64,000 nt of DNA from Lophium mytilinum (taxonomy: Eukaryota), in the NCBI GenBank assembly GCA_010093605.1, contig MU004186.1, positions 2,026,616 through 2,090,615 of the forward strand, in the 5' to 3' direction. Position 1 is the first letter of the stretch, and each line of letters opens with the position of its first letter. Positions 4,247 to 49,224 of this stretch are shown here, one piece after another. The notes below the pieces were generated by a model, which saw nothing but the letters and a program-made list of their open reading frames with translations, did not search any database and was not told where the DNA came from. The position numbers were made by a program, and so were the translations under genes.

Positions 4247-7200
4247 TTAGGCGAATCCGAAGTATTCGCTTCCAGCGGTCATAGCAGTGTAGAGTTGTTG
4301 CCGGAGAGCCTCGTACGTTTCGTACTCCGGTAGGTCGAGCTCTGCGTACTTTGTTAGTTTGCAGCTTTAGGAGAAGGATTGAGGTAAGACTTACGGTTGA
4401 AGCATGTGTGCGAGCTCGGCAACCTGTCCTTGCTGCCATAGTCGCGGTGAATGTTGAAGCGGCTGAAGCCATTCATGCCTTCAAGCTCCTTGAACCCGTT
4501 CAAAGGTACCTTGCTAGTTCCTGTAACGAACTGGAGAAGCTTGGCTCGCTCTTCTTTGTCAAAGGATCGCATTGCGCGCCAGAACCACTGGATCTGCGGT
4601 GAGGCGGCAGTGTAGTTGTGGTACTCGGTATTGTTCTTCCAGTCGTCAACATTAATGTCGGGCAGACCAGAAATAAGCAATTCAAGTTCTTGCTCGCTGA
4701 AGATGGAGATGAGTTCGGCCGGAACTATGTCATGGAAACCTAATCGTGCATGTTAGCAAACGTCTACTGCTTGAATCTCAGATAACGTACCCTTTAAGAA
4801 ATGCTCCAATTGCTCTTGCACGGAGCCTGTGAGGCGTTGTTCGGTGACAAGACGAACATATTCGTGCTTATTTTCTTCGGTTACCGGAATATTGCGGCCA
4901 TTTTCGATCAGGTCGACGGTTTGGACTTCGCCGAACTGGTCGATATCAAATGAGAAAGTCTCCGTAATTATGTCGGTGATGTCGTTTTCCAGCATCCAGA
5001 GCAGCGACTTGTAGTACTCAAGGTCTAGGGTCTCCATGTCTTTCAGGCTCACGGACTTGCCCAGAATCTTCTTGTAGACGGCCCTACTGAAATGGCAGTC
5101 AAGAACGCGACCTTCGTAGAGGGCCTTTCCGATGATGCGGCCAATAAACTTGAAGAACAACGCGTGCTCCGGGTTGATAGCGCTGAGACGATTCGGGTGG
5201 AATGTGGTGCGGTCCGAGGCCACAGGAACAAACAAGGCGTAGTCAGGATTGAACATCTGCCGTGAAAGCACTTGGAACCACTCTCGAGTGACTCCTCCAG
5301 CATCAACGCCTTCTTCCCCATGGAAGCGAATGCTCAGCTTTCCGTACTTCATCTCGTCGGCGCTCTTGTAGTAGAGAGATTTGAAGGAGTCGAGGAAGAC
5401 TTGATCACGTCGAACACCAAGCTGGAGCGCTGGATGCGAATGTCGAACCTCCGTGCCACGCGAATGGAGCCGACGATTGAAGTAATTACGCTTGTTGTCG
5501 AACTCGAGGACCTTGGAGTTTTTGACAAGAAGCGAGAAGGAGCCGCTCATGAGCTTGGGGTTTTGGCGGACAAGATCATTCAGTATTTTCCGATGGTCCT
5601 CTGTGAACGTGAAGAATAGGGTCTCCATCCTTGACTCTGGCGGTGGACTGGAGAGCGCAAAATCCTTCGCATGCATTTTGCCGAGAGGCGCATCCTTCAG
5701 CGTTGTGTTCTTGCACACAACCATCAGCACTTCTATCAAGGGCAAGAGTATTGTAGCAATGTTGAGCATGTTTCCTCGTCGGCGGATTGCTGCCAGACAC
5801 TCGCTGAGCTTGTTCCATAGTGGACCAAAAGTTGAGTTTTCATAGAGCGTAGTGAGGATATCATCTTTTTGAGACGACTCCAGTTCTGCCACATTGCTTG
5901 AAGAAGGTTTGTCCTGCATCTCTGCCCGCTTGGGATCGAAGAGATAGTCGAGAGCAGTCAAGACGCGGAGAAGCTTCGCCTGATCAGAGCTGGCAGGTGA
6001 GAAGTTTGATAGCGCCATCCCTTGAACATCGGTGGGCGATTCTGCCTTGGAAATTTGAGCGGTCAGGTCCTCGAGATCTCTAAGAATTGATCGGCCAAGG
6101 CTCTGTGCAATATCGATCAACTCCTTGCCAAATACCTCCTTAGCTCCGGGAATGGGTGACAAATTGTTGATGACGGAAAGCGTATCCTTGAATGTTTTGC
6201 TGCTGCACTCTCGGGCAGCCAGGATCTTAGCGACTAGTTGGAGGTTGTAATCGGGAACGTCTGGAGGCACAAGAGTCCGAGCCTTTTTAGCCTTGTCTTC
6301 CGTATCAGCTGCTCCAGCTACTGTTGCTTGAGGTTCAGATGCTGATGTTTCTCCTTCGCCAGCAGCCTGTACTTCTGGAAGACTGCTAGGCGCCGAAGTC
6401 ATCTCAGTGTCACCAGAGGTTCCAGTCTCGGGCTGAGTGGAAGTGGCAGCTTGGTCCGGTGTCGCTTGAGTTCCAGCTTCATTGTCGCCGTCTTTGTTCT
6501 CCTCGGCTGGCTTCTCCTTGTCCTTCTTTAGCAAGGCCTGGAGCGGTTGAGTGATACTGCACAAAAGAGTGGCCAATTGTTCCATGATGGTTGAGCTCTC
6601 GATGATCAGTTTTCGGTCTAGCAGACTGAGCAGAGCATTTAGAGGATATTTTGTTGCTTTGGTCTCCTTCGCCTTGCCTTTACGGTTTGCCCGACTCTTG
6701 AACCCAGCGGTCTCATGCTCCGACAGGAAGAAGTTCGAAATGTGTGGATTGGTGCCGGTCAAATATACCAGAGTGTTGAGGCACTGTTGGACAACCATGA
6801 GAGGGGACATCTCGGTGTTTGTCGGAAATTGGCCAGTCGAGGATCGCTTTAGCGGCTGCGGGGTCTTTTGCGAGGCGGGCTGCTTAGCACGAAGGGATAG
6901 TTGGGTGAAACTCCGCTCCACTGCGTTGACGTCTGCACTGCCATCTTGCAGAATCGAGAGGAGAATGCTGATGACTTCGGCGCGATTCTGTCGATTTTCG
7001 CAAACACTCTTGAGCACAGAGTTGAGGCTCTGTTTTGAGCTGCCAGTTTGGGGAATGAACATAAGTCGTAGCAGGGTGGCAACTCCAGCTTTGTCCAACA
7101 TTTGAACACAGGGCCGCGCCTTTCTCTTTTGACCTTGCTCGTCGACGTGTGCTCGATCAAGACCAAGGCCACGTGCGCGACGCATTTGAGTATTGAAGGC

Positions 7201-10200
7201 GTCAAGTTGGTTGAGTCGTCGATCACCCCCCAAGGCTCTAGCTTCAATTGCAAATTCGGCTGGTAGCTGGGCCAACATATCCTCATCTTGGTCCATGAGG
7301 ACTGCTTGTCGCAGGCCGGGTTCTAGAGAAGCAAGGAAGCTGGCAGTGTCCATGTCTTCTCCGCGAGCTGCAGCTGCACCGGCGGGTACGGTTCGGCGGC
7401 GCTGCTCTTCTCGTTCTCTCCGACGACGTTCCGCGGCTTCCTGCTGGAGAAGTTCCTCTCGGATGTCAGGCGGCAATGCTTCTAGGAATTCTCGACTAAT
7501 GTCAGTAGGTTCTTCGCCTGCGGCCGCGGCCTGTGAACGCTGCTCCTGGACTTGTTGCATCAGGACCTCCTCTCGGATGTCTTCGGGCAAGGCGTCTAGA
7601 TACTCCATATCAATACCCATGCCAGTTATGTCAAGCTCTCGGCCACGTATGGTTGTCGTGATCCGTGGCGTTGGTTCTGCTGGGCCTGCTTCAGCTACCT
7701 CGGCCGCAGGGACCGGCTGAGTTGCCTCTACACCCTCCATAGGTTGACCATCTACTGCAATTCCAGACGCTTGTTCAGCTTCTCCGACCTCGCCGGCAGG
7801 TTGTTCGGTAGTCTCGGCAGCAGCCGCAGCAGCAGCAGCCGCCGCCTCTTCCGCCTCTGCAGCTGCTTTTGCTTCGGCTTCAGCAGCTTCACGCTCTTCA
7901 CGCTCCTTCTTCTCTCTAGCTTCCTTCTCTTCCTTTTCTTTCTTCTGTTTCGCGGCTTGCTCTGCTGCCTCTTCCTTCAGTCGCTTCGCGGCTTCGAGGG
8001 CAGGCGGAACTAATAGTCGCAGGATCGAGTTGACTACCCGCTGGCTCCTATCTGCAACATTGTTGCCGAATATCATCCGAGCCTCCTCTTGCCAGCGCGT
8101 CATAGTGCCAGCGCGGATGAAAGAAATTGCAAGAGCAGGATCTTCCCGCGATGCTCGAGTGTGTTGGTCATGTGGACGACGCATGTTCCGCGCAAAGCCG
8201 GGATCGATAGGCGGCGGTAGCCCCATGGGCAAGTTTCCGATCGAGAGATGGAACGCACCGTTGTGATGATGCACGGTGCCTGAGTTCATGGCGTTGAGGA
8301 GGTTGCTAATGAAAGACACCGGGCTGTCGCCTCCGAAGATCCTGCCAGGACGGATGGGATCGATAGCGTGAACCCAATCACTCATGCTCTCGGGGCGAGG
8401 TCCGCCGAAATGACCGCCTGGTCCAGATCGACCTGCACGGGAAAGGAGAGGATTGACCCCATCATCGTTGCCGCGTGGAGCAGCTCCAGGCCTATGAGAT
8501 CGATATGTGGGCACTTGATCCTGTCAGTAAGTTGAACGGATAATGTAAGCAACGGACTACTAACCCATGATCCGGTCACCACCTCCAAACATCCAGGGAC
8601 TCAGGCGATGGGCATGGCCTCGTGGGGGGTGCGGAGTAGGCTCAAAGCCCCAGCCCACGTCGGGTACACCGTTGTCTTCGTCATCTAGATATGTTAACTG
8701 TTGTTCGAATACCAGCTCCGAATATGGATACGAACCTTCGCCTTCGGGGTTGTAGATGATGTCTTCATCGTCATACTCTTCCTCGTCGTCATCTTCATCT
8801 GTATGGTGTCAGCTTGTCCACATATCAACTAATAGCAAACACCACGAACCATCTTCATCTGGCATGTCCTCCTCCATGTACTCTTCTGCGGCCATCTCCA
8901 TTGCCATGTCGCCCTCGAGTTGGTCTATGAGGCCGGGGCCACCACGCTCTCCGATGACCTGAATGATCTGGTTAATAGAGGACTGGTGGTCGTGGTCAGC
9001 ATCGTCGTCTGGCCCAAGGAACCCGTCGTGATCATGATCCTCGTCCTCACTTGCCCAGTCGTCTTCTTCCCCGCCGCCAAGGCTGGCATTCTCGTCATCA
9101 CCAGTGATTTCTTCCATATCCTCGATATCGTCGTCGTCGTCGTGCTCATCGTCGTCTTCTGAACCGTCTTCGTCCTCGGTGAGATCGTCGTCGCCCTCTT
9201 CGCCTATGACGACCTCGACGTCCATAGGCATTTCACCAGAAAGTCCTTCCAAGGGGCCCATGCCGTCCATTTCTTCGTCTTCTTCGCTGATGACATCTTC
9301 GTCGTCGTCTGGGCCCATTTCTTCGTCATACTCCATATCGTCGGCGTACTGGTCATCGTAGATTTCGTCGTCGTCCTCATCATCGGAAGAATCGGATTCG
9401 GACTCCATGTTCTGTCCAGGCTCAAACATGCCGAGAGTAGAATTGCGGAAGAGGTCCGGGGTTTCTTCCCGATCTGCCTCGATATCGCTAACGTCCGATG
9501 CAGTTGATATCTCGTCCTCTTCCGTGTTTCCTGGCGTAGATGAGTCCTCGTAAAGAGTACTGAGTTCAACCGCTATCTCTGTTAGAAATTTGAGAGGCCG
9601 CAGTATGTACTTCACTACCCTCTTGGCGTTAGGGAAGTTGAGGTCGATGTCCGCGATAGACGACGTAAGCGTTGAGATGAAGTTCTTTTCATACATGATC
9701 TTGGCCAGTTGCTTCTGAGTTGGTGTGAGTGCACTGGCACTGCCGCCGTTATCGAGTCTCGAAAGGATCATCTTGGAAAAGATGTCAGAGATTGCAAGTA
9801 AGCGAGAGTACTTCATATCCAGTGCTTCATCCGATGTGCAAGCGTCTTTGAACGCTTTGATAGCATGCTCAAGCACAAATTTCCGAACGAAGAGAAGATC
9901 GGACTCGTCCTCAACGTAAGGCGAGAGCTGAAGAGCCTTTGTTATGCCATTCTCTCCGGTTTTGACGCAAAGAGCTACGACAACATTGATAGCGCAGGAC
10001 GAGGTTGCGGAACGCTTCTTGAACGCCAAGTCTTCTCCGTGGTTTAATGTTCCTACTGGAACCAAAGCATTGAGCAAGTAGTTTAGAACACCGGAGCGAG
10101 GTTTGGATGGTGTCATGGCGTGAGGATCAGCCTTGCGTGAGAAGTTGATAAATTCAATTTTCGTACGGTTGTAGCTTGCGAGAAGCTCTGTCAGGCACTG

Positions 10201-13200
10201 GAGAATGAAGCATCGGTAGATGTAGATGGGGTGCGCTTCAGCCTTGAATTCGGTCTTATCTGCCTTCTTCGGTTCAGTTACAGAGTTTGAAGTTGCTGGT
10301 GTAGATGAGCTCGATTCGCCATTTGTCATCTCCACGTCTGTGGTTGCCGGCTTCTTTGCTTTGTCGTCAGGAAATTGAACGGGTATCTCCTTGTCATCCA
10401 CATCCTTGTAAGTCAGCAACTCGCACAGCATGTAATGAATTACGCCGTCCGGATTTTCGACGACGGGAGGTTTCAGGTCCTGAGTTTTCGTCCTCTCTAA
10501 GCCATCTCCTGGCTTCACTTCAGTTGAGGGCTTGATCTTATCAGCGTCTGGAGGGGCATCAGAGCTCGCGGGGTTCTCATTATTTTCGGTGGAAGCAGGT
10601 CCAGCGTTGTCTGTAGTTGGAACGGCAGTCGCCTCCCTCTTTAAGGCCAATGTCTGTGGTCGCTGGTTGGGTTCGAATCGCTGAATCATGAGTTTCTCGT
10701 TCGTCACCTCCACGAAGATTTCAGGAGCGCGAAGGATCAGCTGGTACATCGACCTCACATAAGCTGTGGTATCTGATGTCCTCCGGTCCCGTGACTCGAA
10801 AGCTGACTGAATCTCGCTACGCATGACTTGGCGAATGATTGCTTCGTCCTCGATGATGTGTCGAAGGATCAACATAAAAGCGCTCCTAAGACCGTCATTT
10901 GTGATGCCGGCAAGTTGTCTGACCATGAGGAAGAGCCTCTGAATATTTCGCTTTTCACCAAGACGAATTGCGATCTTACGAGTCCGCGTGAGCATTGCCA
11001 GAACACGGGAAACTGACAACGCCAAAGACTCGTCTTTGCCTATCTGTGGCAATACCTGCATGATGGCATCAAACATCTGGTTCTTCTCGTCAAGAGTCAC
11101 AACGGGCTCGGGAAGTTTCACGATCGACGTGTCTTCCGACGGATTGTCGCTGCTGGGAGGCGTCCACTGTATTTGATGTGGCTGCGCGTCTTCGGCTAAA
11201 AGGCGCTCGATGATGAGAAGCACTTGGCCAATCCAGGGCGAAGATTCCTCCTTGGTATGAGAGGGTGGGATCTTGATGAACTCAAGCAGGATCGAGAAGC
11301 TATCTTTTAATTCTTCAACAGTGGCATCGTAGAAGTCCTTGTCTTGAAGCACAAGTGCGAGCAGATGGGCGGAGGCAGCAATCTTCTTGCCGTTGTCACG
11401 GAAGTCATCGCCGGTCTGCAGCGAGATAAGAGATTGCACCAGTGTAGATCCAATCTCACCACGCAATGCCGTCGGTTCCGTCGCCTTGGATACAGCGGCT
11501 GAAATCAAGTCAGACAGCTCGAAAGTAACGTTATCGTGAACGTTCAGTACATCCAGAGACCGGTCGATCAGGTTCTTTCTTAGCGTAGCGCGTTCGTTGT
11601 CCAGGTCGTCCACCGTGACGACTGAAACCGGCTTTGCATCCTCTCGACCGCTGAGTTTGAGGATGAGATATGGTCCATCCCATTCCGATCCAGTGACTGG
11701 GTGCAATTCCGCTGATTCTGTGATCGGGGTTACTTCAGCTGCCACTGGTGTTTCCTCAGAGGCGTCCGCTACATCTTCCATGGTTACAGAGTTTGTATCT
11801 GGGGCCTCAAAATCGACAGGCGTGCTAGAGTCATCCACGGGCTCCGGTACAACGACTTCAGCCCTCACAGGCGAAGATGAAGCTTCCTTCTTAACCTCAT
11901 AATAAGGCAATGGGTTTCGCGTAGTCCTAAGATCAGTGGCGTGGGCAACGCAGTATTCACGCGCCTTGGTAGCGTCATCAAAACAGCGATAGAGAGCCTC
12001 CGTAGCAAGTGTCTCTGTGTAGCCTAAGTCCTTCAACCGCTGTATACTCTCGGGACGCACTTTGTAAACCCTAAGAGGAATTTTGCTGCGCGTCGGAAGT
12101 TTGTCAGAGCGCTTGTAAGCCCCGTTTTCGGTCTCACCGTCGAGCACAGTCTTCAAGATTGCGACTAAAGTCTTCACAATAGAAGTTGTAGCCTTGTCCA
12201 TGAGATCGGAGTTCCAGATCTTCTGCACTGGTTTGATGACAGCTGCACGAAGTTCAACCACGAACTGATTAGATAAGAAGAAGTCAGGCTTATCTCGGTC
12301 CTTGTCTGGCCGTGATTGCATAGCTGAGGTTTGGGAAGCCTCGTTGATCAGCTTTGAGTTGATAATCTGCTGGTAAAATGCGAGAATGATCTTGACCCCC
12401 CCAAGGGATAGGTTAAGCGCTCCTTGCACGTCATCTTTGGGCTTGTCGTCGCCTTGTGTCGCTATGATAGAAGTAGCCTCATCGTAAAATGACTCAAGAA
12501 TGTCGCCCAGGGCAGCAAAACCCCCCTGGTTCTTGAAACACTGCAAAACAAGTGTCAAAGCCTGGGGATAGCCACGTTCCATGCCGGTGTCGATGAAGAG
12601 TTGAGAGACAGACGTCAGGATGACTATCCAGTAGGCGTAGCGATCCCTCGCGGACTCAGCGTTGGTTGGAACGTCGAAAAGCAACTGATCCATGCCTGCT
12701 TTGGCTAACTGATCTGCTACGATGACATGACCTTGCTTCGGATATGGTTCAATGCCTCGACGGAATAGGAGCAGCTTGCCGAGAGAGGAGAAAAAAGGTG
12801 TGATCGCTGTCGGTACACTGCTCAGAAGATATCGCAGGATTTGAGTATTCTTGAATTGTGCACCGTCTCGATCTCTACGGGGAGCCGCAGAGTCTGTCAT
12901 TCCTTCTGGGAGGTTGCTGTCGTTGGTCGATGCTATCTGGCTGTCGGCAACACCATTCGTAGTCTCGGCTGAGAAAGAGGGTGTGCGGTCATGCGATATA
13001 CGCAAGACGTCATCGGCCTCTTCTGTTCCAAACCCAGAGTTCTTGATACGTGTAGCCTTCTCCCAATCGGATGGCATCTGGTTTTGAAGCAAGATCTCCT
13101 CCCAGACACAACTCCTATGAAGCCGGCCGAGGCTCTCTATCAGGCGCGCGTACATATCAGCAAGGTTGACCTGGGAGAAGACATTGTTCGTAGAGCGATG

Positions 13201-16200
13201 ATTGAAGATTTGAGACTGGAACGTCAAAGCGAGCGCGTTGCAGAGTGTCTGAACTGTAACGAGGGCTTTCGCATATTCGGTCCCATGGTCCAAAACATCT
13301 GGTCGAGATGCAGAAGCTCCAAGTTCCACTGGAGGGGACGCCTTCGTGAACGGAGCAAAGAAGGCTTCTTCAGAGCTATGCTTCATCAAAGGCTCCAATT
13401 GATCTACAGCTTTCTGTGCCCGCCTGAGAAGCGACGGGAGTGCCAAATGCGGTTTCTGTTCGACAAGAAGCTGAATGACCCGGCTCACTTCCTCGCTAGA
13501 ACCTGTAGGATCATTGAATTTGTACGGCAAGCAAGGTAGTGTTGCAAAATCCAGAGCGAACTCAAGTCCACCTTTCTCGATGAAAGATACACAGAGACTA
13601 TTATTAGTGAAGAAGCCCCCAAGGAATTTGCACACAACGGCGATGTATTTTGTGGCGCTAGGATTGTCTTTAGCGTCTTCAGAGTCAGAAACTTGATCGA
13701 ACGTGACATCCTTGTCCAAAGAAGAATCGACGGCGTCCGCTTCATCCACATCAGTCATGTTGACATCGTCACCGTGAAGGGCTGAATGCACGGGTCCTTC
13801 TTGGCCTCTCAGCGCTCGGCGACCGCCTGAGACAATAATCCGACTGCCTTCATCATTGATCCAGAGCTTTGCTCCTGCACCCTCTTCGACTGCCTTGTTA
13901 TAACACAAGTTCGTCACACGAATGACCATTTGGTAGACCGAATCGAGAACATCGTTCTTAAGTGCAGGATGGTGACGAACAAGCTCGTCAAAAGCACTAC
14001 CAATAATGGTGGACACATCTGGGTCGCTCTCCAAAGCCTTGACATGTGCTGGGCTCTCAAAAACCTCAAAGAAGCTTGCCAGAGCGTCGGATGATTTGAA
14101 AAGCTTCATGCCGGCCTCTGCCAAGCAAATTGCTCCATACGCCGATGGAATATTCGAGATGGCTTCTGCGACAGGTAGAATCCCTTGCGCCAAGGGACCA
14201 TCCCGCGGGGGGAAGAACGCCGGAGTTGGCTTCGGGATGGATGTCGAGTTCGTTGACAATCGCAGGGATTCCGGAAGTGTTGTAGTCTCGTCAGATCCTG
14301 CGCTACCCTCGTCGGCTGAGACCTGCTGCTCCTTTTCCTCGATGGTCTTATTGGTCACAGATTCGAGGAAAGCTTTGCTCAAGCCCGCCTCGGCGATAAC
14401 CTGGTAGCTCGTGGGCTCGTTGTGAATGAAGCTTGTCAAGATCGTGACCGCCATACTCCATACAGTGGATCCGAAGGTCGAAGCGTTCGATATCACTGTG
14501 CGCAATGCACGCAACAGTTGTGGAGAATCAATCAGGTTCCGTAACAGCCGATCGAAGTTACCACCAGTGTGGCCCATCATATGGTTCATAAACTTGAACA
14601 ACCAGCGGAGTGTTTGCTGTTGATGATAAGGAATTTGGTAGTCAGTCAACTGAGTTTTGAAGTCGTTTGGCATCCCATCGCCTTGCTCGGCGCGTGCTTT
14701 CGACGATTCAACCTCGTAAGATGCTAGATCGGCAATGATTTCTAGCCCTTTGGCGTTGACCATGGCTTGGAAAGCATCGCGAAGATTGTATACAAAGGTG
14801 TCCAAGAAGCCCAAGACCTTTGGGTGATTCCGCTCAGCTTTGTTGGTTCGGAGCGTGAGTACTTCGACCAGAATCTCAAGCAGGCCTGCGGACACCATGG
14901 CTTCGCCTGTTCGCAGCTGAGAATTTGGAAGGCCATTAAGTAACGTGAAGAGTGCTTCTCGCCCATCATCTTCATCAGAAGGTTCGCCGGGGGTCTCCTC
15001 CACTGCTAGCTCTGCGACGGTCTTTCGTACCACATAGAAAAGCACTCCATGATTCACATTAACACTGAGTGCAGTGCAAACGTCGGCTGATTTGGTCTTC
15101 TGCTTTGTTAATGCCTCCAGGGCGTTCAATGCATGTGTCTGGAGCTCTTTTGAGACACCAAGTTCCCCATTGCTGGGGGGATGGACGAGTTCCGACAACT
15201 GATAGGCGAGCTGAAGACGACGAGGTTCATCGGAATCTTGCTGACCAAGTTTCTGTTGAAAATTGGGTTCTGAATATACATAGGCGAGGTTTGCAACAGC
15301 AAGCAAGCGGATTGCCACCAAATCTGCTCGGCTTGACTTGCCCGATATCATGGCCTTGGCAACCCGAATTCGATGCAAGAGCTCATACTGCGAGCTCTCG
15401 GGTACCTCTTTCAAGCCGGCACCTACCAACTCATGCGCAGGTGTAGAAGCAACTTTGGAGGAGGAAAGCTCGAAGACTTTCGGCCCAGAGTGTCGTGCAT
15501 GCTCCTGGTCCCGATTGCCAGCCGGTGTAGCCGTCGTCGGAGATTCGTCGAAGGATAAGGTGCGGTGCGGTCGAGGAGTTTGGTTGGGCCCTAGATTTGA
15601 CGTCCGGCGGACTGGAGTAGGAGTCTTGGGCATTGTAGGTGACGCGGGCGTCTCTAACCCTGCGGACTTGCTGGCACCATCAACAGCGGATGCAGAAGGC
15701 TCATAGTATGACAGAACCACCCCGCCCCATTCCTCACTGAGCACGGATTCTGATATGTCGTCCTTGACCAGTGATACCAAATCAGTTGGGCTAATCTTCT
15801 CGCTCTTGCCCTTACGATCCACGGTCATCTTCTCCTTGCCCTTTGCGGATGGTGTGCTGAGAGTTGCAGCAGTGGAAGGGGACTTCGGGAGTGGTGCTGC
15901 GAGCTTGTTAACCTTCTCTAGGTTGATATTGTAATGGCCGGCGAGAAGATTATTGTGGAGGGCGGACGGAGGCATCCGTGAGCGAGAGGCATGGTATCGC
16001 TGCGCAAGACGATGGCTCAAGCGGAGTGTAGTCTTGAGAAGCGAAATGGACGTCGTGTTGAGTAGGTTGTTCAGATGGCTGCTGCTCGCGTACAAGCTCC
16101 GATTCCCACATTGCTCCACAAGCAGCCGAGTGAATGTGAGGATATGTTCAACCAACTCGCGGTCACCATCCTCAGAAAAGAGTAGCTCGTCAAGAATGGC

Positions 16201-16584
16201 ATCTGTCGGCGTCTGTTCCGAGATCGCCTTGCCATCTTCGTCAGTATCGCCCTTCAGCAGGAGTCGCCGCTGGAATGGCTGCGTCTGTGGCCCGCTCGCT
16301 AGCTCGTATTCTTGGTTGAATAGATCTAGTATGCGGTCGAAGCGGTTTAGCGCGGGTATCCAGTGAAACAGGTCGCCTCTAGGAAAAGGCCATAGTCGAG
16401 GAAACGAGGCAAGGTGTGCGGGAAACTGAAATAGTGGAATCGAAGAAGTGGCTTTGACAAACTCCGCGATCATAGGAGACTAGTAGGTGACAACGTTAGC
16501 GGGCTTTGATAGAAGTCAAGACATGAAGATCCATACTATAGTCACGTTGTGCCGCGCATTAGCCGACTTCTTGATCTTGCCCAT
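4247..16584 (-). CDS. TOM1: HECT-type E3 ubiquitin ligase TOM1/HUWE1 (~4,000 aa)
   Basis: Starts MGKIKKS at 16584. Introns at ~16480-16536, 8799-8849, 8685-8735, 8514-8564, 4740-4790 and 4342-4394. Contains [12 protein letters not shown], an acidic tract, UBM-like repeats ([22 protein letters not shown]), and a HECT domain ([24 protein letters not shown], catalytic SHTCFN) ending YFGFA-TAA at 4247. Confidence 0.98.
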
Positions 16585-22012: not shown

Positions 22013-22372
22013 TCGGATAACCTCCAGAGGGCGAAGAAGATAGTACAAGCTCTTGATGATTCTCACACGACTCTAAGACGAAAACTTGTTCTTAATTGAA
22101 CTCCTCCACAAAGTGTCACCAAAGACTTATAAGATCGCTTGTGAATGGAAATTGAAGAGTTGAGTGAGGACATAACTGGGTTGAAAGAGAACCATACACC
22201 GCATCCACCTAAGCAAGGTAATAATAACCACATCTTGGCTCAGTACAAACGAGCACTACGGGCTCTGTCCGATGGTTATATTGTCTCGCTCGTATCATAC
22301 CTTGGAACCCGTCGAAACCCTAAAATTACAGAACTTTGTTACATGATAAGCCTGCCAGTGATAGTACCAATA

Positions 22373-22599
22373 CAGTGACAGGCCACAAGTCTGGGCACAC
22401 TGATTCGCCACTGCTTGAGGTACCCCAACAGGCTCTCGAAGAATCAATGCCTATATTAAGTGACAAGCAGTGCAAATTAGACTGCCTCTTGACTAGCTGG
22501 CTACTCAGCAGCCAGGCTACCCCCAACAGCGGTGTCGAGTAAGCAAGCTGGAGCCGCGCCGTAATAAGTCTGTGTGCCCAGACTTATGGCCTAGTACTG
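22373..22599. mobile_element. 227-bp MITE, Tc1/mariner type (28-bp TIRs, TA target duplication)
   Basis: TA|CAGTGACAGGCCACAAGTCTGGGCACAC ... GTGTGCCCAGACTTATGGCCTAGTACTG|TA; the TIRs match at 24/28. Homologous copies at 48436-49224. Confidence 0.88.
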
Positions 22600-22606
22600 T
22601 ACAAAA

Positions 22607-35014: not shown

Positions 35015-36896
35015 ATGAAGAGACCATTCTCCTTCAACCTGACCCCCATTGTGAGTTTCCTCCTGCCCTATCGAGTGGCGCGACGCTCTACAAAACCCAT
35101 CTGACTTTCCCCAGAAGGTGCCCCCAAAGGCGGAGATCAAGGTTGTCAAGAGCTCAAACTCCACAAACTCAATCGCCAGACCTCTGCCCAGACCAGACAG
35201 CTGCTCCCCTCCTCCCTCGCCCTTCATATGCCGCCGCGCCTTGTCCGGCAAGACCGAGGCTCAACTTCGCGCCGCCTGCGCCCTCATCCTCGAAAATTAC
35301 AAGCCTTCTGGACATGTCTTCGAGGATAACGCGAAGCCTAAGCTAGACTTTGACGCTCTGAACCGCTCTATGAGGGAGAAGAAGAGGGATGCTGAAGCCT
35401 TTTCCCGTGCCGTCGATAATCGCGCCCATCTAAGAAGCCTTCCCAAGCCCGAGACCGTTGTCAAAGATCTGTACCCTGGCTCGGGATCAGCACATGCTGG
35501 CACCAAGGCCAACAGCAGTCGTCGAAGAGAAGATCGCCACCCCCATGCCATGGACACCGAGCGAGCGGCCAGAAGAGCTGCAAAGTCTCAGCCATCCGCA
35601 GATCGCCCCAAGACCGCGCCCATGCGCAACACCGTGGATTCTGACGATTCGTCGGATCAGCAAGTGAAGACCCCGCTTACAAGTTCCACGGGATACTTCT
35701 ACAACAATGCCTCGACTGCACCTACGTCAGCGGCTTTTTCATCCTCACCCGGCTCAAAGAGGGACTCTCGGCTCGCCTATCCCAACGACAACGCTGTGGC
35801 GGATACTGACGCTGCTGCTGCCGAGTGGATGAAGCAGGAGCTCGAGAGGCGACGGCAAAATATGCTGTCTTTGGGAGAGCCCCCTGCTTTTAACAACGCG
35901 GTTCGACCCCCAAGTCGAAGCCGGAGTATCAAGGAAGAATTCCGCGAATACATACGACCACTAAGCAGATCTGCTTCCAAAGAATCGATGCGCAGTAACT
36001 CTCTAGTCGCCCAAGAACCTCAACGCAGCTCTGGACACGGTTGGCGCAGTTGGTCTCTGCATCGGAAGACCAGTTTGTCCAGCTTCAAGGATAGCAGACC
36101 AAACAGTTCAGGAGGACGGACCGAAACTTGCTCTGACGAGGCCCCCAAAGTGGAGCTCAATCTCAACAGAGAACTGCCCCCGCTTCCAAGTCTAGACAAA
36201 TGGGAGGACCATGCGGCCGAGTCAGCCAAGGACGAGCAGCATGCTCAAAGATCCAGCACCCACATCGCAAGTCTCATGCTCCCCAAAGTTCGCGGTCATC
36301 AACAACATGACCAGCCTGCTGCAGCCCCCCGCCATAAGCATCGACGAAGTGGCTCGGACTCGCTAGCGCAGACGTTCCCCAGGGATACTACGCTCTATTC
36401 ACCTGCTCAGAACGTCAAGATGCCGAGACCAAAATCTAGCTTACCCAAGAATCGACCGAACCAAAGCAGGTACGACTCGTCGATAACTTTCGACAGCACA
36501 ATGGAACCCACGGAGCCTAGCCGTCACACCACCGAAGAGGCTAGAGCGAGGACACATCGGCATAAGAAGACTGCAAGTAGCGTCTCTCAGATCACGCCCA
36601 GCATGAAAGTCAGTATTGATCAGTACCGCTATGAGCCACCAAACTTCAGCAGAAAGATCAGCATGGACGTTGTCGGCCGGGCCTACAACGAATTTCCCCC
36701 TCATAACGAGAAGGCGGTCTCCAAACCGTCGGGCCATGACAAGATGCAGAAGTTGCGGAAAGCTGTGAGCGGATGGATGCTCAATAAAAAGAAAGACAGG
36801 AAGGAAAATAGGACGGACATATCGGAACAAACTGCCGTCAAGGGCAATCTCACTGGTCGTAGTGAGGCTGCCCATGCGCCGGTTGTAAAATACTGA
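35015..36896 (+). CDS. Hypothetical disordered Ser/Arg-rich protein (2 exons)
   Basis: ATG 35015 MKRPFSFNLTPI, intron 35061-35114 (GTGAGT...CTGAC...CAG), then in frame with the 592-codon ORF. Contains LNRELPPLP. Confidence 0.8.
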
Positions 36897-37592
36897 GAAA
36901 GGTGGTTGGACGTGGGGTGGCAGAAGGCTGCTTATATGGTGTTGTAATGCCTGTTATGCGTTACGAGGTTCATGGCTTTGCATTCCTCCTGACTTGATCG
37001 GGAGTGTAGGTTGGTGATGTAATTAATAGCATAGAATGCTTCTTCTTTCTACTTTCACGAGCGTACTTTTAGAGACAACGGGTCGTGCGCTGGGCGCTTA
37101 ATTTTAATACCCTGTTCCTTTGTAATAACCAGAAAAAAACGTATCTTTCGGCTTTTCATGCTAGTATATTATCGTTATACCGAGTTTTGGGCCAAATGGT
37201 GGACAGTTGATTTCGGATAGAGGGCGTGCCAAGCCTCGTCAGTTGCTCTTTCCTACCTATTTCACCTTTTAGCACCGCGTTCCCCGGCTCGTCCATTATC
37301 ATCTCATCTAGTATCCCAACCTAAGATATTGCTATAGCCAGGTAGAGTGACGACTGCAGCAATTGTGACAGTCTACATAGGAACTGTAGGTACGTACATA
37401 TCGGACATTTGGGGCGCCTCTTAGTGATCATCGATTAGATAATTGACCAAAGGGCCTCACCTAGAGTTTCGCACCACTTACAGGCCTGCTCCAACTATAC
37501 CTGATCTCTAGAACGTTTTTTCTCAAAAAAGCAAATTAGCAAAAAGAATCTCTCCATCCTCGCGGGTCGAACTTCGGCTTGACGAGGGTCCC

Positions 37593-37789
37593 AAAAAGAA
37601 ATTCAAGGAGCAAAAGTTCGCCGGGCAGGGCCCTACGCTACATCTTTGTCGTGTGGAATGGCGCTCTACAGACCCAGGCTGGATTCCAACCCAGCCACGG
37701 GGGCGACTTACTGGTCGACTTGGGGGTCGGCCTGAGTCTCGGAAGACTCAGACGGACCAACCAGGCCACCGATTGCGCTATGGAGTGCC
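37593..37789 (-). ncRNA. Candidate RNA polymerase III-transcribed structured ncRNA (tRNA-type promoter, not a canonical tRNA)
   Basis: TATA-like tract 37805-37815, A box TAGCGCAATCGG (37769-37780), several stems, degenerate internal B box (37681-37691), T-run terminator (37593-37601), and a consensus B box GTTCGACCC just downstream (37564-37572). Confidence 0.55.
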
Positions 37790-38420
37790 AAGAAATTTTT
37801 GCAAATATATAATAAGGTAGGGTGTGATAAGTTACTTTCACTTGCTAAATCACACTCACATGCAAATTACGGTCACTTGCTAATTATGCTTACCTGCTGA
37901 TCACATTTACCTGCTGAATCCCGATCACCTCCTCCATCACGTTCATCTAAGGTGCTCCAAATGTTCCGATAGTTTGCCAGGCCTTGACATGCTTTCAACA
38001 CCTTTGCCGTAGAGGACAATCCTCGAGAAAAAGCTCCAAGCTACTAAACGGTGGATGGCGGGTAAGAGGTCCTACTAGATGTGTTGCGCAAAGAGCTGCT
38101 TCTCACTCGCCCGTTCAAGCTCAAATTGAGGCAAGGTAATGTTTCTACATTTTCATCGTGCAGCCTCCGTCTCACGTCCTCAAACATTGTAGGATCCAAA
38201 ACACGAGCTACCCATCCTCAATGCATCAACATGTGCCAACAACATCACCTCCAAATGCTACTCCTACTACCGACCACTGCTACCGCCACAGCCTCCACAC
38301 CTTCTACCGCCCTGCTCCATCTCTCTTAGCCGTCCAGCTCCCTCCGTACACTCCCATCAACCTCGCCCCGCCTCCGCCAACCCGCTCTCCCTCACCCTCA
38401 CCACCACCACGGCAGCCCTA

Positions 38421-40433
38421 ATGTGCAAGATCCTAAGCTACACGCACTCCTGCGGCCATTCGGCCCGCTACCTCCTCTCGCGCTGCCGCGGCACCTACCA
38501 CAAACCCAAACGCCGCGTCGCCTTCAGCAAAGTCGCGTGCCTAGCCGTCGACTACCTCACTATCACATCGCGTGACCCGTGCGGGCCATGTCAGAACGCG
38601 CGGTTCGAGAGCGAGTGGCAAGGCCGCCTGGAGGCCGGGCGGGCGCTGCTGCGCGAGCTCGACAGCCGCGGGCTGGACGAGAACCGTGTTGCGGAGGGGC
38701 GGATGGCGGAGCTGGAGGAGCAGTATCTGGTCGAAGCGTGGACGAGTCGTCTGAGGTTCCCGCCGATGGGGAAGCCGGGGTATGAGAAGCCGGGTATTCA
38801 TCCGAGGGTCGGGGGCAGGTCGCCGTTGAGATGGGAGCTGATGCCAGAGGATGTGGAGATTCAGGTCGAGGAGGTAGACGGGGAGCCATTGAAGAGGTTT
38901 GGCGGCACGTTTCAGGCCTTTTTCGAGGACCTGTATGGGATGTGGGGGCCAGAGATTGACGAGATGGCGGCAACAGGGGTACAGCAGAGTGAACAGGTTG
39001 AGGAGGAGCCCGCTGATTCTGCTCTAGCTTCTTCATGGAATCCAAATTGGGAAGATTGGAGTGGAGAAGGCGACGAGGGCAATGCGGAGGCCTGGAATGA
39101 TGCTAGCCTGGACTCAGTGGGCCCGGAGACGCCGATAGAAGAAGGGGAGGAGCCCGATGATCTCTGGGAGCGGTCCCCTACTCCCACTCCGTTGGACCAG
39201 GAATCAATTGGCCAGCTAGAGTTAGAGTCGACATCAGATGCTCTCTGCTTCTACAACTACGTCCCGCCGACGTTCAAGGTAGACTCGCTCAAGGAACAGA
39301 TCACACTCAAGGACAATGCCGCCAAAGCTAAAGCTCCTGAACCCCAGCCGGACCCGGATTGGGACTCAACGAACGGAGAGCCCAAGCGATATGTGAGCTT
39401 ACTAGGCCATCTCAAACAATACGAAAAGAGGGAGCTATCACCAGAGACAGAGCCTGATTTAGAACCGGATACAGAGACAGAACCAGAAGAGAGCGACACG
39501 CTCTCAAACAGTGTGTCACTGAAGTTGGACGCATATGATTATGCGGAAGAACCAGTGGCGGCTATCAATGCTGAGACTAACGGATTCTTCAGCAAGACGA
39601 TCAGCTACGAGAATGGCATTATTCCGCGCAGCTTCAGGACCAACGATACATTCGAGGACAGCAGCAGCAAAACGTTCAGCCACGAAAACGGCAAGAATCC
39701 ACACGCTTCTCAAGCCAACGGCTTACATGAAGACGACACCTCCAGCTACCCAGCCATCCACAAAAACAACACCAGTCCCCCCAAACCCACTTCCAACGGC
39801 GTACTCCACGACAACATCTCCAGCAAAACCCCCGAGGACGCCAACAGCGCCGCACAGCATCTGTCCCAAACCAGCCACCCGCTAGATGACAACATCTCCA
39901 CAGCCGCCCCACCAACATATATCTATCCCCCTCCTCCCCCTTCCCTCTCCGCGCCAGCGCCACAGCTCGATACCCCCCTCCCCTCCGAATCCATTACCCC
40001 CTCCGCCACCACCCGCACCGCGGCCGCGCAGCCCCCGACCGGCTCCCTCGCTTGCAAACATCCACCGACTGCCTTCGCCTACGCTGTGCGCTACAACCTG
40101 TCGCCCGCCGCCTTCCTCGCCGAGCGGCGGAGGCAGATGGTGGTTTTGGAGATGAATGTGAATGGGGCGTCGAGTCTGGAAGCGCCGAGGGCGGAGGGGA
40201 AGAGGGGGAAGGGTGCGAAGATTGGAGGGGAGGGGAGGGGGAAGAGGGTTGTGGAGGAGAGAGGGGAAAGGGGTATGGAGGCTGTTGATATGGGAGTGGG
40301 GATGGGGAAGGCTGGCGATGAGGAACAGCAGTTTGAAGGTGCTGATATGGGGAGGGAGAGGGAGAGGGATGAGGAGAGCGAGAAGCAGAAGAGGCGGGCG
40401 GGGAGGTTGGATTTGAGGGATGTGCAGTGGTAG
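38421..40433 (+). CDS. Hypothetical protein: N-terminal Cys/His-rich domain plus acidic low-complexity region with ~26-aa repeats
   Basis: 670-codon ORF starting MCKILSYTHSCGH...RCRG...ACL...PCGPC, a putative metal-binding pattern. Confidence 0.7.
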   Translation: MCKILSYTHSCGHSARYLLSRCRGTYHKPKRRVAFSKVACLAVDYLTITSRDPCGPCQNARFESEWQGRLEAGRALLRELDSRGLDENRVAEGRMAELEEQYLVEAWTSRLRFPPMGKPGYEKPGIHPRVGGRSPLRWELMPEDVEIQVEEVDGEPLKRFGGTFQAFFEDLYGMWGPEIDEMAATGVQQSEQVEEEPADSALASSWNPNWEDWSGEGDEGNAEAWNDASLDSVGPETPIEEGEEPDDLWERSPTPTPLDQESIGQLELESTSDALCFYNYVPPTFKVDSLKEQITLKDNAAKAKAPEPQPDPDWDSTNGEPKRYVSLLGHLKQYEKRELSPETEPDLEPDTETEPEESDTLSNSVSLKLDAYDYAEEPVAAINAETNGFFSKTISYENGIIPRSFRTNDTFEDSSSKTFSHENGKNPHASQANGLHEDDTSSYPAIHKNNTSPPKPTSNGVLHDNISSKTPEDANSAAQHLSQTSHPLDDNISTAAPPTYIYPPPPPSLSAPAPQLDTPLPSESITPSATTRTAAAQPPTGSLACKHPPTAFAYAVRYNLSPAAFLAERRRQMVVLEMNVNGASSLEAPRAEGKRGKGAKIGGEGRGKRVVEERGERGMEAVDMGVGMGKAGDEEQQFEGADMGRERERDEESEKQKRRAGRLDLRDVQW

Positions 40434-48435: not shown

Positions 48436-49224
48436 TAGTGACAGGCCATACGTCTGTGCACACTGGTTTGCCACTGCTTGGAGGACGCCCACAGCTTGTT
48501 GGAGAATCAAGGGCAATGTCGAGTTTCAAGCAGTGCACATTGGACTTCATTTTGACTAGATGGCCGCGTAGTAGCCAGGCTTCCCCTTACAGTGGTGTCC
48601 GGTGAGCAATACTTGAGTTAAATAGTGATGAATTCGAGTGCCTAAACTTATGGTTAAGTCTGTGCACACTGGTTTACCACCGCTTAGGGCACCCCCACGG
48701 GATATCGAAGATCTAACGGCGAAGTCGAGGTTTCAACAGTGCAGATTGGACTACTTCTTAACTACACAGCTACTTAGTAGCTGAGCCACCCCCTACAGTG
48801 GCAGCCGGCAAGCAAGATTTAGATCAAGTAGTAACAGGCCATAACTTTGTGAGTCTGCACACTGGGTTTACCACTGCCTGGAGCACGCCCACAGGATGTC
48901 GAATATCAAGGGCAATGTCAAGTTTCAAGAAGTGCAGATCGGACTGCTTCTTGACTACGTAGCTACTCAGTAGCTAAGCTACCCCCTGCAGTGGCGTCCG
49001 GTGAGCAAGATCTAAACTAAGCAGTTATATATTCGAATGTTCAGACTTGTGGTCTAATATTGTAAATTCAAGGGCAATGTCGAATTTCAAGTACTGTATA
49101 TTAGACTGCTTCTTGACTACATAGCTGCTTAGTAGCTAAGCCACCCCCCCACAGTGGCGTCCAGTAAGCAAGATTTGAGCCAAGCAAGCGATACATTCGT
49201 GTCCAGACTTATAGTCTCGTACTG
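48436..49224. mobile_element. Head-to-tail array of ~4 diverged copies of the 22373 MITE
   Basis: Repeated blocks CACACTGGTTT.CCAC.GC, TCAAGGGCAATGTC, TTGACTAC.TAGCTACT.AGTAGCT, CCCC..CAGTGG, and TIR-like ends (TAGTGACAGGCCATA...; GTGTCCAGACTTATAGTCTCGTACTG). Confidence 0.88.

Follow-up and report, generated by a model that had tools for sequence, protein, structure and literature searches.

A 64-kb window of the Lophium mytilinum genome (64,000 nucleotides of contig MU004186.1; "the window" hereafter, with all coordinates counted within it) was analyzed, and an intergenic block in it was followed up in particular. The block lies between two plus-strand open reading frames (ORFs), 35118-36896 and 38421-40433, neither of which carries a Pfam family, and its GC content is 58%, compared with 49% for the surrounding stretch between the two ORFs. 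Read on the minus strand, it carries promoter-like signals of the type that RNA polymerase III (Pol III) uses. A preliminary description had taken it for a single unannotated RNA gene. The architecture is indeed more than chance, but the element is a member of a repeat family rather than a unique new RNA gene. The reading that we favor, at a probability of roughly 0.5, is that approximately 37871-37560 (minus strand) represents one full-length copy from a dispersed and lineage-restricted family of short, tRNA-related repeats of Pol III type in L. mytilinum. Shown here are the motifs with their fold, the lack of Rfam and tRNA-model matches, and several diverged copies. By analogy with the low-copy, tRNA-related short interspersed nuclear elements (SINEs) of Aspergillus, the family could be SINE-like and tRNA-related, or else a family of small-RNA genes.

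Copies were sought in one public sequencing run (32.7 Mb of contigs, DNA or RNA uncertain) that shares 0.13 of the region's words. L. mytilinum is present in this run, as one contig is identical to 37872-38100, with 0 differences in 229 nt. Three other contigs match the candidate and then continue into sequence unlike the window: record 1 matches 37594-37712 with 14 differences, record 2 matches 37602-37647 with 2 differences, and record 3 matches 37612-37811 with 16 differences and one gap, a 1-nt indel. Identity across the matched parts is 88-96%, and 37612-37647 is the sole part covered by all three. Because each of these contigs has unlike flanks, the candidate is, judged from the alignments, a member of a dispersed multi-copy family with at least four members. 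This leaves the single-gene view unsupported, as the organism has at least three more diverged copies or fragments at other sites. Within the 64-kb window no second copy was found. The stretch 37200-37593 is not covered by any contig of the run, and no contig carries the window's own copy at 100%, a gap from which nothing was concluded.

Every motif named in the preliminary description was found on the minus strand when the sequence was read directly (Table 1). The order of the signals, a TATA-like tract, an A box near the 5′ end, a T-run and then a B box beyond the T-run, agrees with the Pol III-like layout that had been claimed. The A box had been called textbook; the motif is present, but it departs from the strict consensus. 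Likewise, the internal B-like box GGTTGGAATCC fails the strict consensus GGTTCGANNCC, with G in place of the consensus C, and the one match to GGTTCGANNCC in the window lies away from the candidate, at 35900. A tRNA gene would combine a consensus A box with a B box lying in the T arm; this combination was not found at the candidate, whose internal boxes fit only looser forms. Further upstream, ATTTGCATGTGAG has one exact site in the 64-kb window. To summarize the layout, a composite signature was defined as TATA 10-60 nt before an A-like motif, T5 40-300 nt after it and GTTCGANNC at most 80 nt beyond T5. The candidate is its single occurrence on either strand of the 64 kb, and none of 300 dinucleotide shuffles contains it (11 of 300 do when the TATA term is dropped); these figures overstate the significance because the definition was set after the site had been seen.

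Table 1. Features of the candidate element in the window, with proposed roles where assigned.
Feature	Position	Strand	Basis or remark
TATA-like tract TTATTATATAT	37815-37805	-	16-26 nt ahead of the proposed first base
Proposed RNA 5′ start GGCACTCCA	from 37789	-	sequence reading
A-box-like motif TAGCGCAATCGG	37780-37769	-	fits loose pattern
Hairpin with 10-bp perfect core and UCCG (UNCG-type) loop at 37743-37740	37758-37725	-	folding
T-arm-like hairpin GGCTGG-GTTGGAAT-CCAGCC, carrying B-box-like GGTTGGAATCC	37696-37677	-	sequence and fold
Closing stem	37789-37778 / 37671-37660	-	10 of 12 positions pair (one G-U), 2 mismatches
Further complementary strands AAGTCGCC / GGCGAACTT	37709-37702 / 37622-37614	-	sequence reading
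3′ domain, approximately 60 nt, with small hairpin at 37637-37619	37659-37602	-	
Oligo-T tract TTTCTTTTT	37601-37593	-	proposed Pol III terminator
Earlier T4 run	37615-37612	-	upstream of TTTCTTTTT
B box AGTTCGACCC (core GTTCGACCC, 37572-37564)	37573-37564	-	approximately 20 nt past the T-run, 208 nt past the A box
Further T-runs T5 and T6	37545-37541 and 37530-37525	-	possible back-up terminators upon read-through of the first
Upstream region within the repeated unit, holding ATTTGCATGTGAG at 37867-37855	37871-37816	-	
Two imperfect 35-nt tandem units starting TTAGCAAGTGA	37883-37814	-	

The extent of the repeated unit was judged from the 30-letter loose ends of the records, which were aligned to the window by eye. 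On the downstream side, record 1 matches into the T-run as far as 37594, and past the run 21 of 30 columns match the window (approximately 30% spacer mismatches), ending in GTTCGATCC. The loose end of record 2 reads TTTTGG and, after a 10-nt deletion, AAGTTCGATCC, so that its B-box core GTTCGATCC lies 10 nt closer. Records 1 and 2 are the two other copies long enough to reach the box, and the loose ends of both have the core GTTCGAYCC; the B-box core thus persists while the spacer decays. Record 3 lacks the TTTCTTTTT tract, but where the window has the earlier T4 it reads T5 at its junction. Its loose end resembles the window spacer, and the contig ends short of the B box. On the upstream side, record 3 matches as far as 37811, through part of the TATA tract. 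Its 30 letters past 37811 resemble 37868-37839 and contain a near-identical ATTT(A)GCATGTGAG, approximately 28 nt closer than the site of the window at 37867-37855; relative to record 3, the window carries an extra 35-nt tandem unit upstream. The contig identical to the window stops at 37872, possibly where sequence common to the copies would break the assembly graph. Since the upstream part recurs in record 3 and the downstream B box in records 1 and 2, the repeated unit probably runs from approximately 37871 to at least 37560 and so extends past the proposed RNA at either end.

The 130-nt 5′ domain (37789-37660, minus strand) folds at -64.1 kcal/mol, compared with -45.9 ± 3.6 kcal/mol for shuffled sequences (z -5.09), and none of 200 shuffles folds as well. 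Its minimum-energy fold accounts for 38% of the ensemble. The predicted shape is a Y, that is, a three-way junction closed by a stem, with one long and one short arm; the outline is tRNA-like, yet it is not a cloverleaf. The full 190 nt folds less strikingly, with a z of -2.7 and 1 of 200 shuffles as good. Most of the pairings noticed earlier were recovered. The hairpin of approximately 14 bp consists of the 10-bp perfect core with its UCCG loop and of flanking pairs that lengthen it, within an inverted repeat at 37713-37770. The T-arm-like hairpin with its degenerate B box is likewise present, the strict GGTTCGANNCC failing there, and the complementarity of the 5′ end with 37671-37660 was confirmed at 10 of 12 positions. 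For the additional stem AAGTCGCC/GGCGAACTT the letters exist, but the full-length minimum-energy fold leaves the pair unused. The view that G-U pairs favor the minus strand finds no backing in the folding energy, which shows no strand preference. The minus strand was instead assigned because of the order of the promoter-like signals and, weakly, because of the UNCG-type loop.

Known RNA classes do not account for the element. ARAGORN found 0 tRNA genes in the window at default settings and 0 with introns allowed, in line with the earlier remark that no cloverleaf forms. At an 80% threshold, two overlapping poor models appeared, one per strand, with "introns" of 53 and 67 nt and mismatched acceptor stems. 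A search of the whole window against Rfam 15 (4227 families) gave 0 matches at gathering score, and 0 matches were found at E ≤ 10 on 901 nt around the candidate. On 241 nt, a single match to mir-957 was returned (E 0.47; 16.6 bits, where the gathering score is 66), which is noise. The lack of Rfam matches also bears out the statement that no core motifs of U6, 5S, signal recognition particle (SRP) RNA, RNase P or RNase MRP are recognizable. U6 was considered individually, as the 3′ domain slightly resembles the U6 core. There is no Rfam U6 match, however, and an intact ACAGA box is missing, the nearest sequence being ACAAAGA (37649-37643); the likeness was rejected as due to chance. For H/ACA and C/D RNAs, 5S, SRP and RNase P/MRP, no box motifs were seen by eye and no Rfam matches were obtained. 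A spliceosomal intron from GTAAGT (37710) to TAG (37667) was dismissed, as no branch-site-like CTRAY motif was found. The candidate was judged non-coding because none of its four stop-to-stop ORFs (68-102 aa) has a Pfam family at E ≤ 1 and because a 1-nt indel separates copies.

Pattern scans for similar sequences outside the organism gave no relatives either. A metagenome scan with a pattern of the 3′ domain and the B box returned three loci (L001-L003), none homologous beyond the pattern and thus attributed to chance. A GTDB scan with the 20-nt T-arm hairpin gave two matches in proteobacterial metagenome-assembled genomes (L004, L005) with no further similarity. No paper was found for five sequence words of the candidate, and the Lophium papers among those listed are taxonomic or genomic, with none on small RNAs by title; supplements were outside this search.

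Transcription, the polymerase, the RNA ends, the spread or mobility of the copies and any function are inferred here, and the working of the element is proposed in this sense. TFIIIC would bind two sites approximately 208 bp apart, the A-box-like motif at 37780-37769 and, past the T-run, the consensus B box at 37573-37564, and would place TFIIIB over the TATA-like tract (37815-37805). Pol III would start near G37789 and stop in TTTCTTTTT (37601-37593). The predicted product is a GC-rich RNA of approximately 190-197 nt, with the Y-shaped non-cloverleaf 5′ domain followed by the 60-nt 3′ domain. The downstream B box is the plausible working one, because the internal box has G for the consensus C, an exchange that disables TFIIIC binding in yeast tRNA genes.

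Several points weigh against this interpretation. A search for transcript evidence found no RNA run among the sequencing runs that share the region's words. The A box meets the loose consensus only, the strict form TRGCNNARTGG having 0 matches in the window. A C-to-G change at the internal B-box position in question cripples TFIIIC binding in yeast tRNA genes, and T5 is possibly a weak terminator in fungi. The composite signature was a post hoc definition for a site already known. Of the family, four members are documented, three of them partial, and the other copies were seen as alignment tables rather than as sequences. Finally, the plus strand folds equally well, with z -4.85 for the 130 nt and -2.9 for the 190 nt, and since the reverse complement folds to the same degree, energy cannot choose the strand.

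The substitutions between copies bear on the interpretation from both sides. Differences were listed only where they lie at least 31 letters from the alignment end, which leaves 8 of 14 in record 1, 9 of 16 in record 3 and 0 of 2 in record 2; transitions make up 12 of the 17. The stems are not spared, as 10 of the 17 listed substitutions fall in paired positions and 7 in unpaired ones, in an RNA that is 65% paired. Taken alone, six of the ten paired-position changes break their pair, although the partner base is unseen for four of the six; the two real breaks are at 37677 and at 37770, the latter being the one change of record 3 in the A-box-like motif. The remaining four of the ten keep the pair. 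Changes at 37635 (U-G to C-G), 37665 and 37681 do so on the minus strand only, via G-U, the one at 37681 (record 1) turning a G-C into a G-U pair in the T-arm-like hairpin, and the change at 37713 keeps its pair on the plus strand only. In record 3, 0 of the 9 listed substitutions fall within the 49-nt hairpin stretch 37721-37769 ((91/140)^9, approximately 0.02). Record 1 diverges most in the hairpin, at less than 80% identity, with the related strand still visible in its loose end. Overall, the substitutions neither favor nor oppose selection on RNA structure.

The same data bear on a possible, though not probable, alternative, namely a non-mobile, functional multi-copy family of Pol III small-RNA genes, in which each copy would possess its own external promoter parts and the RNA would have a cellular role. 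Dispersed genes of this kind, such as those for U6, 5S and vault or Y-type RNAs, keep external promoter parts at every copy. Homology of the candidate family outside the proposed RNA on both sides fits this expectation, with the TATA and the ATTTGCATGTGAG-like motif shared by record 3 and the B box shared by records 1 and 2 despite spacer indels. The unchanged hairpin of record 3 (0 of 9, approximately 0.02) and the z of -5.1 of the 5′ domain point in the same direction. Against it stands that the copies differ by 4-12%, carry indels and include one without the 5′ domain; moreover, the T-runs differ between copies, and neither an excess of stem conservation nor a compensatory change is visible.

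A comparison with SNR6, the U6 snRNA gene of Saccharomyces cerevisiae, shows that a layout of this type is known to work. According to the account of this gene in PMC5855946, SNR6 has an upstream TATA; its A block lies inside the RNA and its B block downstream of the coding region, approximately 200 bp from the A block. The candidate has a TATA, an internal A block and a B block past the terminator in the same order, with 208 bp between A and B, but the likeness is one of layout only. In contrast to SNR6, the candidate RNA is not U6 and would measure approximately 195 nt rather than approximately 110, its B box lies 20 nt past the terminator, and it is multi-copy with diverged copies. Like a tRNA gene, the candidate has its A-box-like motif at +9 to +20 and a hairpin that resembles a T arm, its 5′ and 3′ ends pair, and one base precedes the trailer. 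Unlike a tRNA gene, it has three arms instead of four and the wrong base at the C56 position of the T-loop box, and 10 nt separate its T-like arm from the closing stem's 3′ strand.

For the preferred reading, a tRNA-related repeat, the closest parallels are the tRNA-related SINEs of fungi, such as the AfuSINE2 families of Aspergillus fumigatus and Mg-SINE of Magnaporthe. In the part of PMC5063351 that covers them, fungal SINEs of this type measure 140-493 bp, occur at low copy number, have A and B boxes that are degenerate, form no cloverleaf and carry an oligo-T tract, and one AfuSINE is described with an extra downstream B box. The candidate is similarly short and low in copy number, with degenerate A and B boxes, and it shares with the AfuSINEs a 5′ part without a cloverleaf and a tRNA-unrelated extension to an oligo-T tract; this likeness was judged by profile and not by sequence. 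In contrast to those elements, the candidate has its good B box beyond the T-run, and its upstream TATA region recurs in one other copy; moreover, no target duplication of 4-14 bp was established, and no tail of the LINE-like (long interspersed nuclear element) or ACT-repeat kind was seen.

Many dispersed copies with target duplications had been named in advance as the sign of a SINE. This sign is present in part: the three other contigs carry dispersed copies in unrelated flanks, while target duplications were not shown. A classical SINE is further disfavored by the homology of record 3, which does not begin at the transcription start but reaches 37811, so that 22 nt before the proposed start are shared, with additional shared sequence past an indel; a copy made via RNA from 37789 should lack this flank. 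In addition, no A-rich or simple-repeat tail is visible at the candidate, no target duplication is convincing, and no flanking repeat of at least 10 nt was found. On the minus strand, the 8-nt sequence AATTTCTT occurs as a direct repeat at 37797-37790 and again at 37603-37596, bracketing 37789-37604 (186 nt), with one copy directly before the proposed first base and the other inside the terminator tract. Its value as a target duplication is undercut by record 3, which shares the flank upstream of 37790. Record 2, on the other hand, starts at 37647 without the whole 5′ domain, and 5′ truncation is frequent among retroposed copies. The candidate may be either of two things suggested earlier, a tRNA-derived Pol III noncoding RNA or a SINE head.

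That the copies are diverged and truncated, with unlike flanks, would also fit a dead fragment of some other repeat, for instance a solo long terminal repeat (LTR), a miniature inverted-repeat transposable element (MITE) or a longer transposon. The Pol III-like boxes would then be vestigial or coincidental, with no discrete RNA. We consider this improbable. Both strands fold equally well, as palindromic DNA would, and the upstream tandem repeats with the TATA resemble the U3 region of an LTR. At plausible boundaries, however, no terminal inverted repeats or TG..CA ends were found, inverted pairs being estimated at chance level, and the four stop-to-stop ORFs, with 0 Pfam families, show no coding remnant. 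Vestigial boxes also sit poorly with a B-box core that is kept in the two other copies reaching it while the spacer decays, and with a composite signature absent from all 300 shuffles. In favor of such a fragment, a survey of transposable elements (TEs) mentions L. mytilinum in passing, with two TE expansions driven by LTR and DNA elements (PMC12910237).

The preliminary description had further suggested a primary microRNA-like RNA (milRNA), which gains no support beyond a hairpin. In such a Pol III-made milRNA precursor, RNase P/Z would cleave the tRNA-like 5′ domain, and the long hairpin would be processed by dicing, as in milR-4 of Neurospora crassa. For N. crassa, the sections of PMC3547838 on tRNA-linked milRNA report Pol III transcription and RNase Z processing. 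milR-4 itself is flanked by two genuine tRNA-Ala genes and gives rise to small RNAs bound by Argonaute. The candidate resembles milR-4 as an intergenic Pol III-type unit with a tRNA-like part and a hairpin, here of approximately 23 bp with bulges within the tRNA-like fold. It differs in that no genuine tRNA is present and that it is known from sequence alone. With a perfect stem of just 10 bp, a lone Rfam match (mir-957) that is noise and a record 1 that diverges most in the very hairpin, a milRNA precursor is highly unlikely.

On the plus strand, the ORF 38421-40433 encodes 670 aa and matches itself alone among 8000 scored candidates from a collection of 5.8 billion proteins; it is an orphan gene. 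The contig identical to the window starts at 37872, approximately 60 nt past the plus-strand TATA TATATAATAA, and runs into this gene; if the run is RNA, this may be a transcript start of the gene. The block could then be promoter or 5′ regulatory DNA of the orphan gene, with the TATA serving that gene and the structured block incidental. The reading of the tract as TATATAATAA, at this distance before 37872, agrees with such a role, as does the position of the gene 610 nt downstream. The run may be DNA, however, in which case the contig end is not a transcript start, and the paralogous copies, the fold and the order of the boxes would be left unexplained. We therefore regard this explanation as very improbable.

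The gene content of the rest of the window is fungal, with a Tom1/HUWE1-type HECT ligase, a transporter of the major facilitator superfamily (MFS) and ankyrin genes. One ankyrin ORF is 100% identical to an L. mytilinum protein, and its next relative, in Mytilinidion resinicola, is 75% identical. The HECT E3 ligase gene of the Tom1/HUWE1 type (DUF908, DUF913, UBA, UBM, HECT) occupies 4753-16473 on the minus strand and is split over at least two long ORFs. A MITE-like element of approximately 230 bp was noticed at 22371-22601, with 33-nt terminal inverted repeats that are 85% complementary. Units of 81-173 nt related to it recur five times in loose tandem at 48437-49148.

To our knowledge, very few Pol III transcripts besides tRNA, 5S, U6, SRP and RNase P RNA are known from filamentous fungi, and SINE-like elements are poorly catalogued in these organisms. 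If the candidate belongs only to a decaying repeat, its value is limited to the repeat annotation of the L. mytilinum genome. A more far-reaching outcome, which we consider rather unlikely, would be an undescribed and abundant Pol III small-RNA gene family in Lophium, perhaps in the Mytilinidiales, with a promoter split in SNR6 fashion between an upstream motif and TATA, an internal A box and a B box right behind the terminator, and with an RNA of approximately 195 nt that contains a tRNA-like three-way junction and a UNCG-capped hairpin. If true, such a family would parallel the vault, Y or 4.5S-type RNAs in a fungus and might also be a source of small RNAs or of TFIIIC-bound chromatin sites. 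Should the copies keep TATA, A box and a post-terminator B box, they would provide a natural test of the SNR6-type split promoter outside U6. In that case, the family may be a source of extra TFIIIC sites, and guide-RNA expression in Dothideomycetes could draw on it for Pol III promoter and terminator parts.

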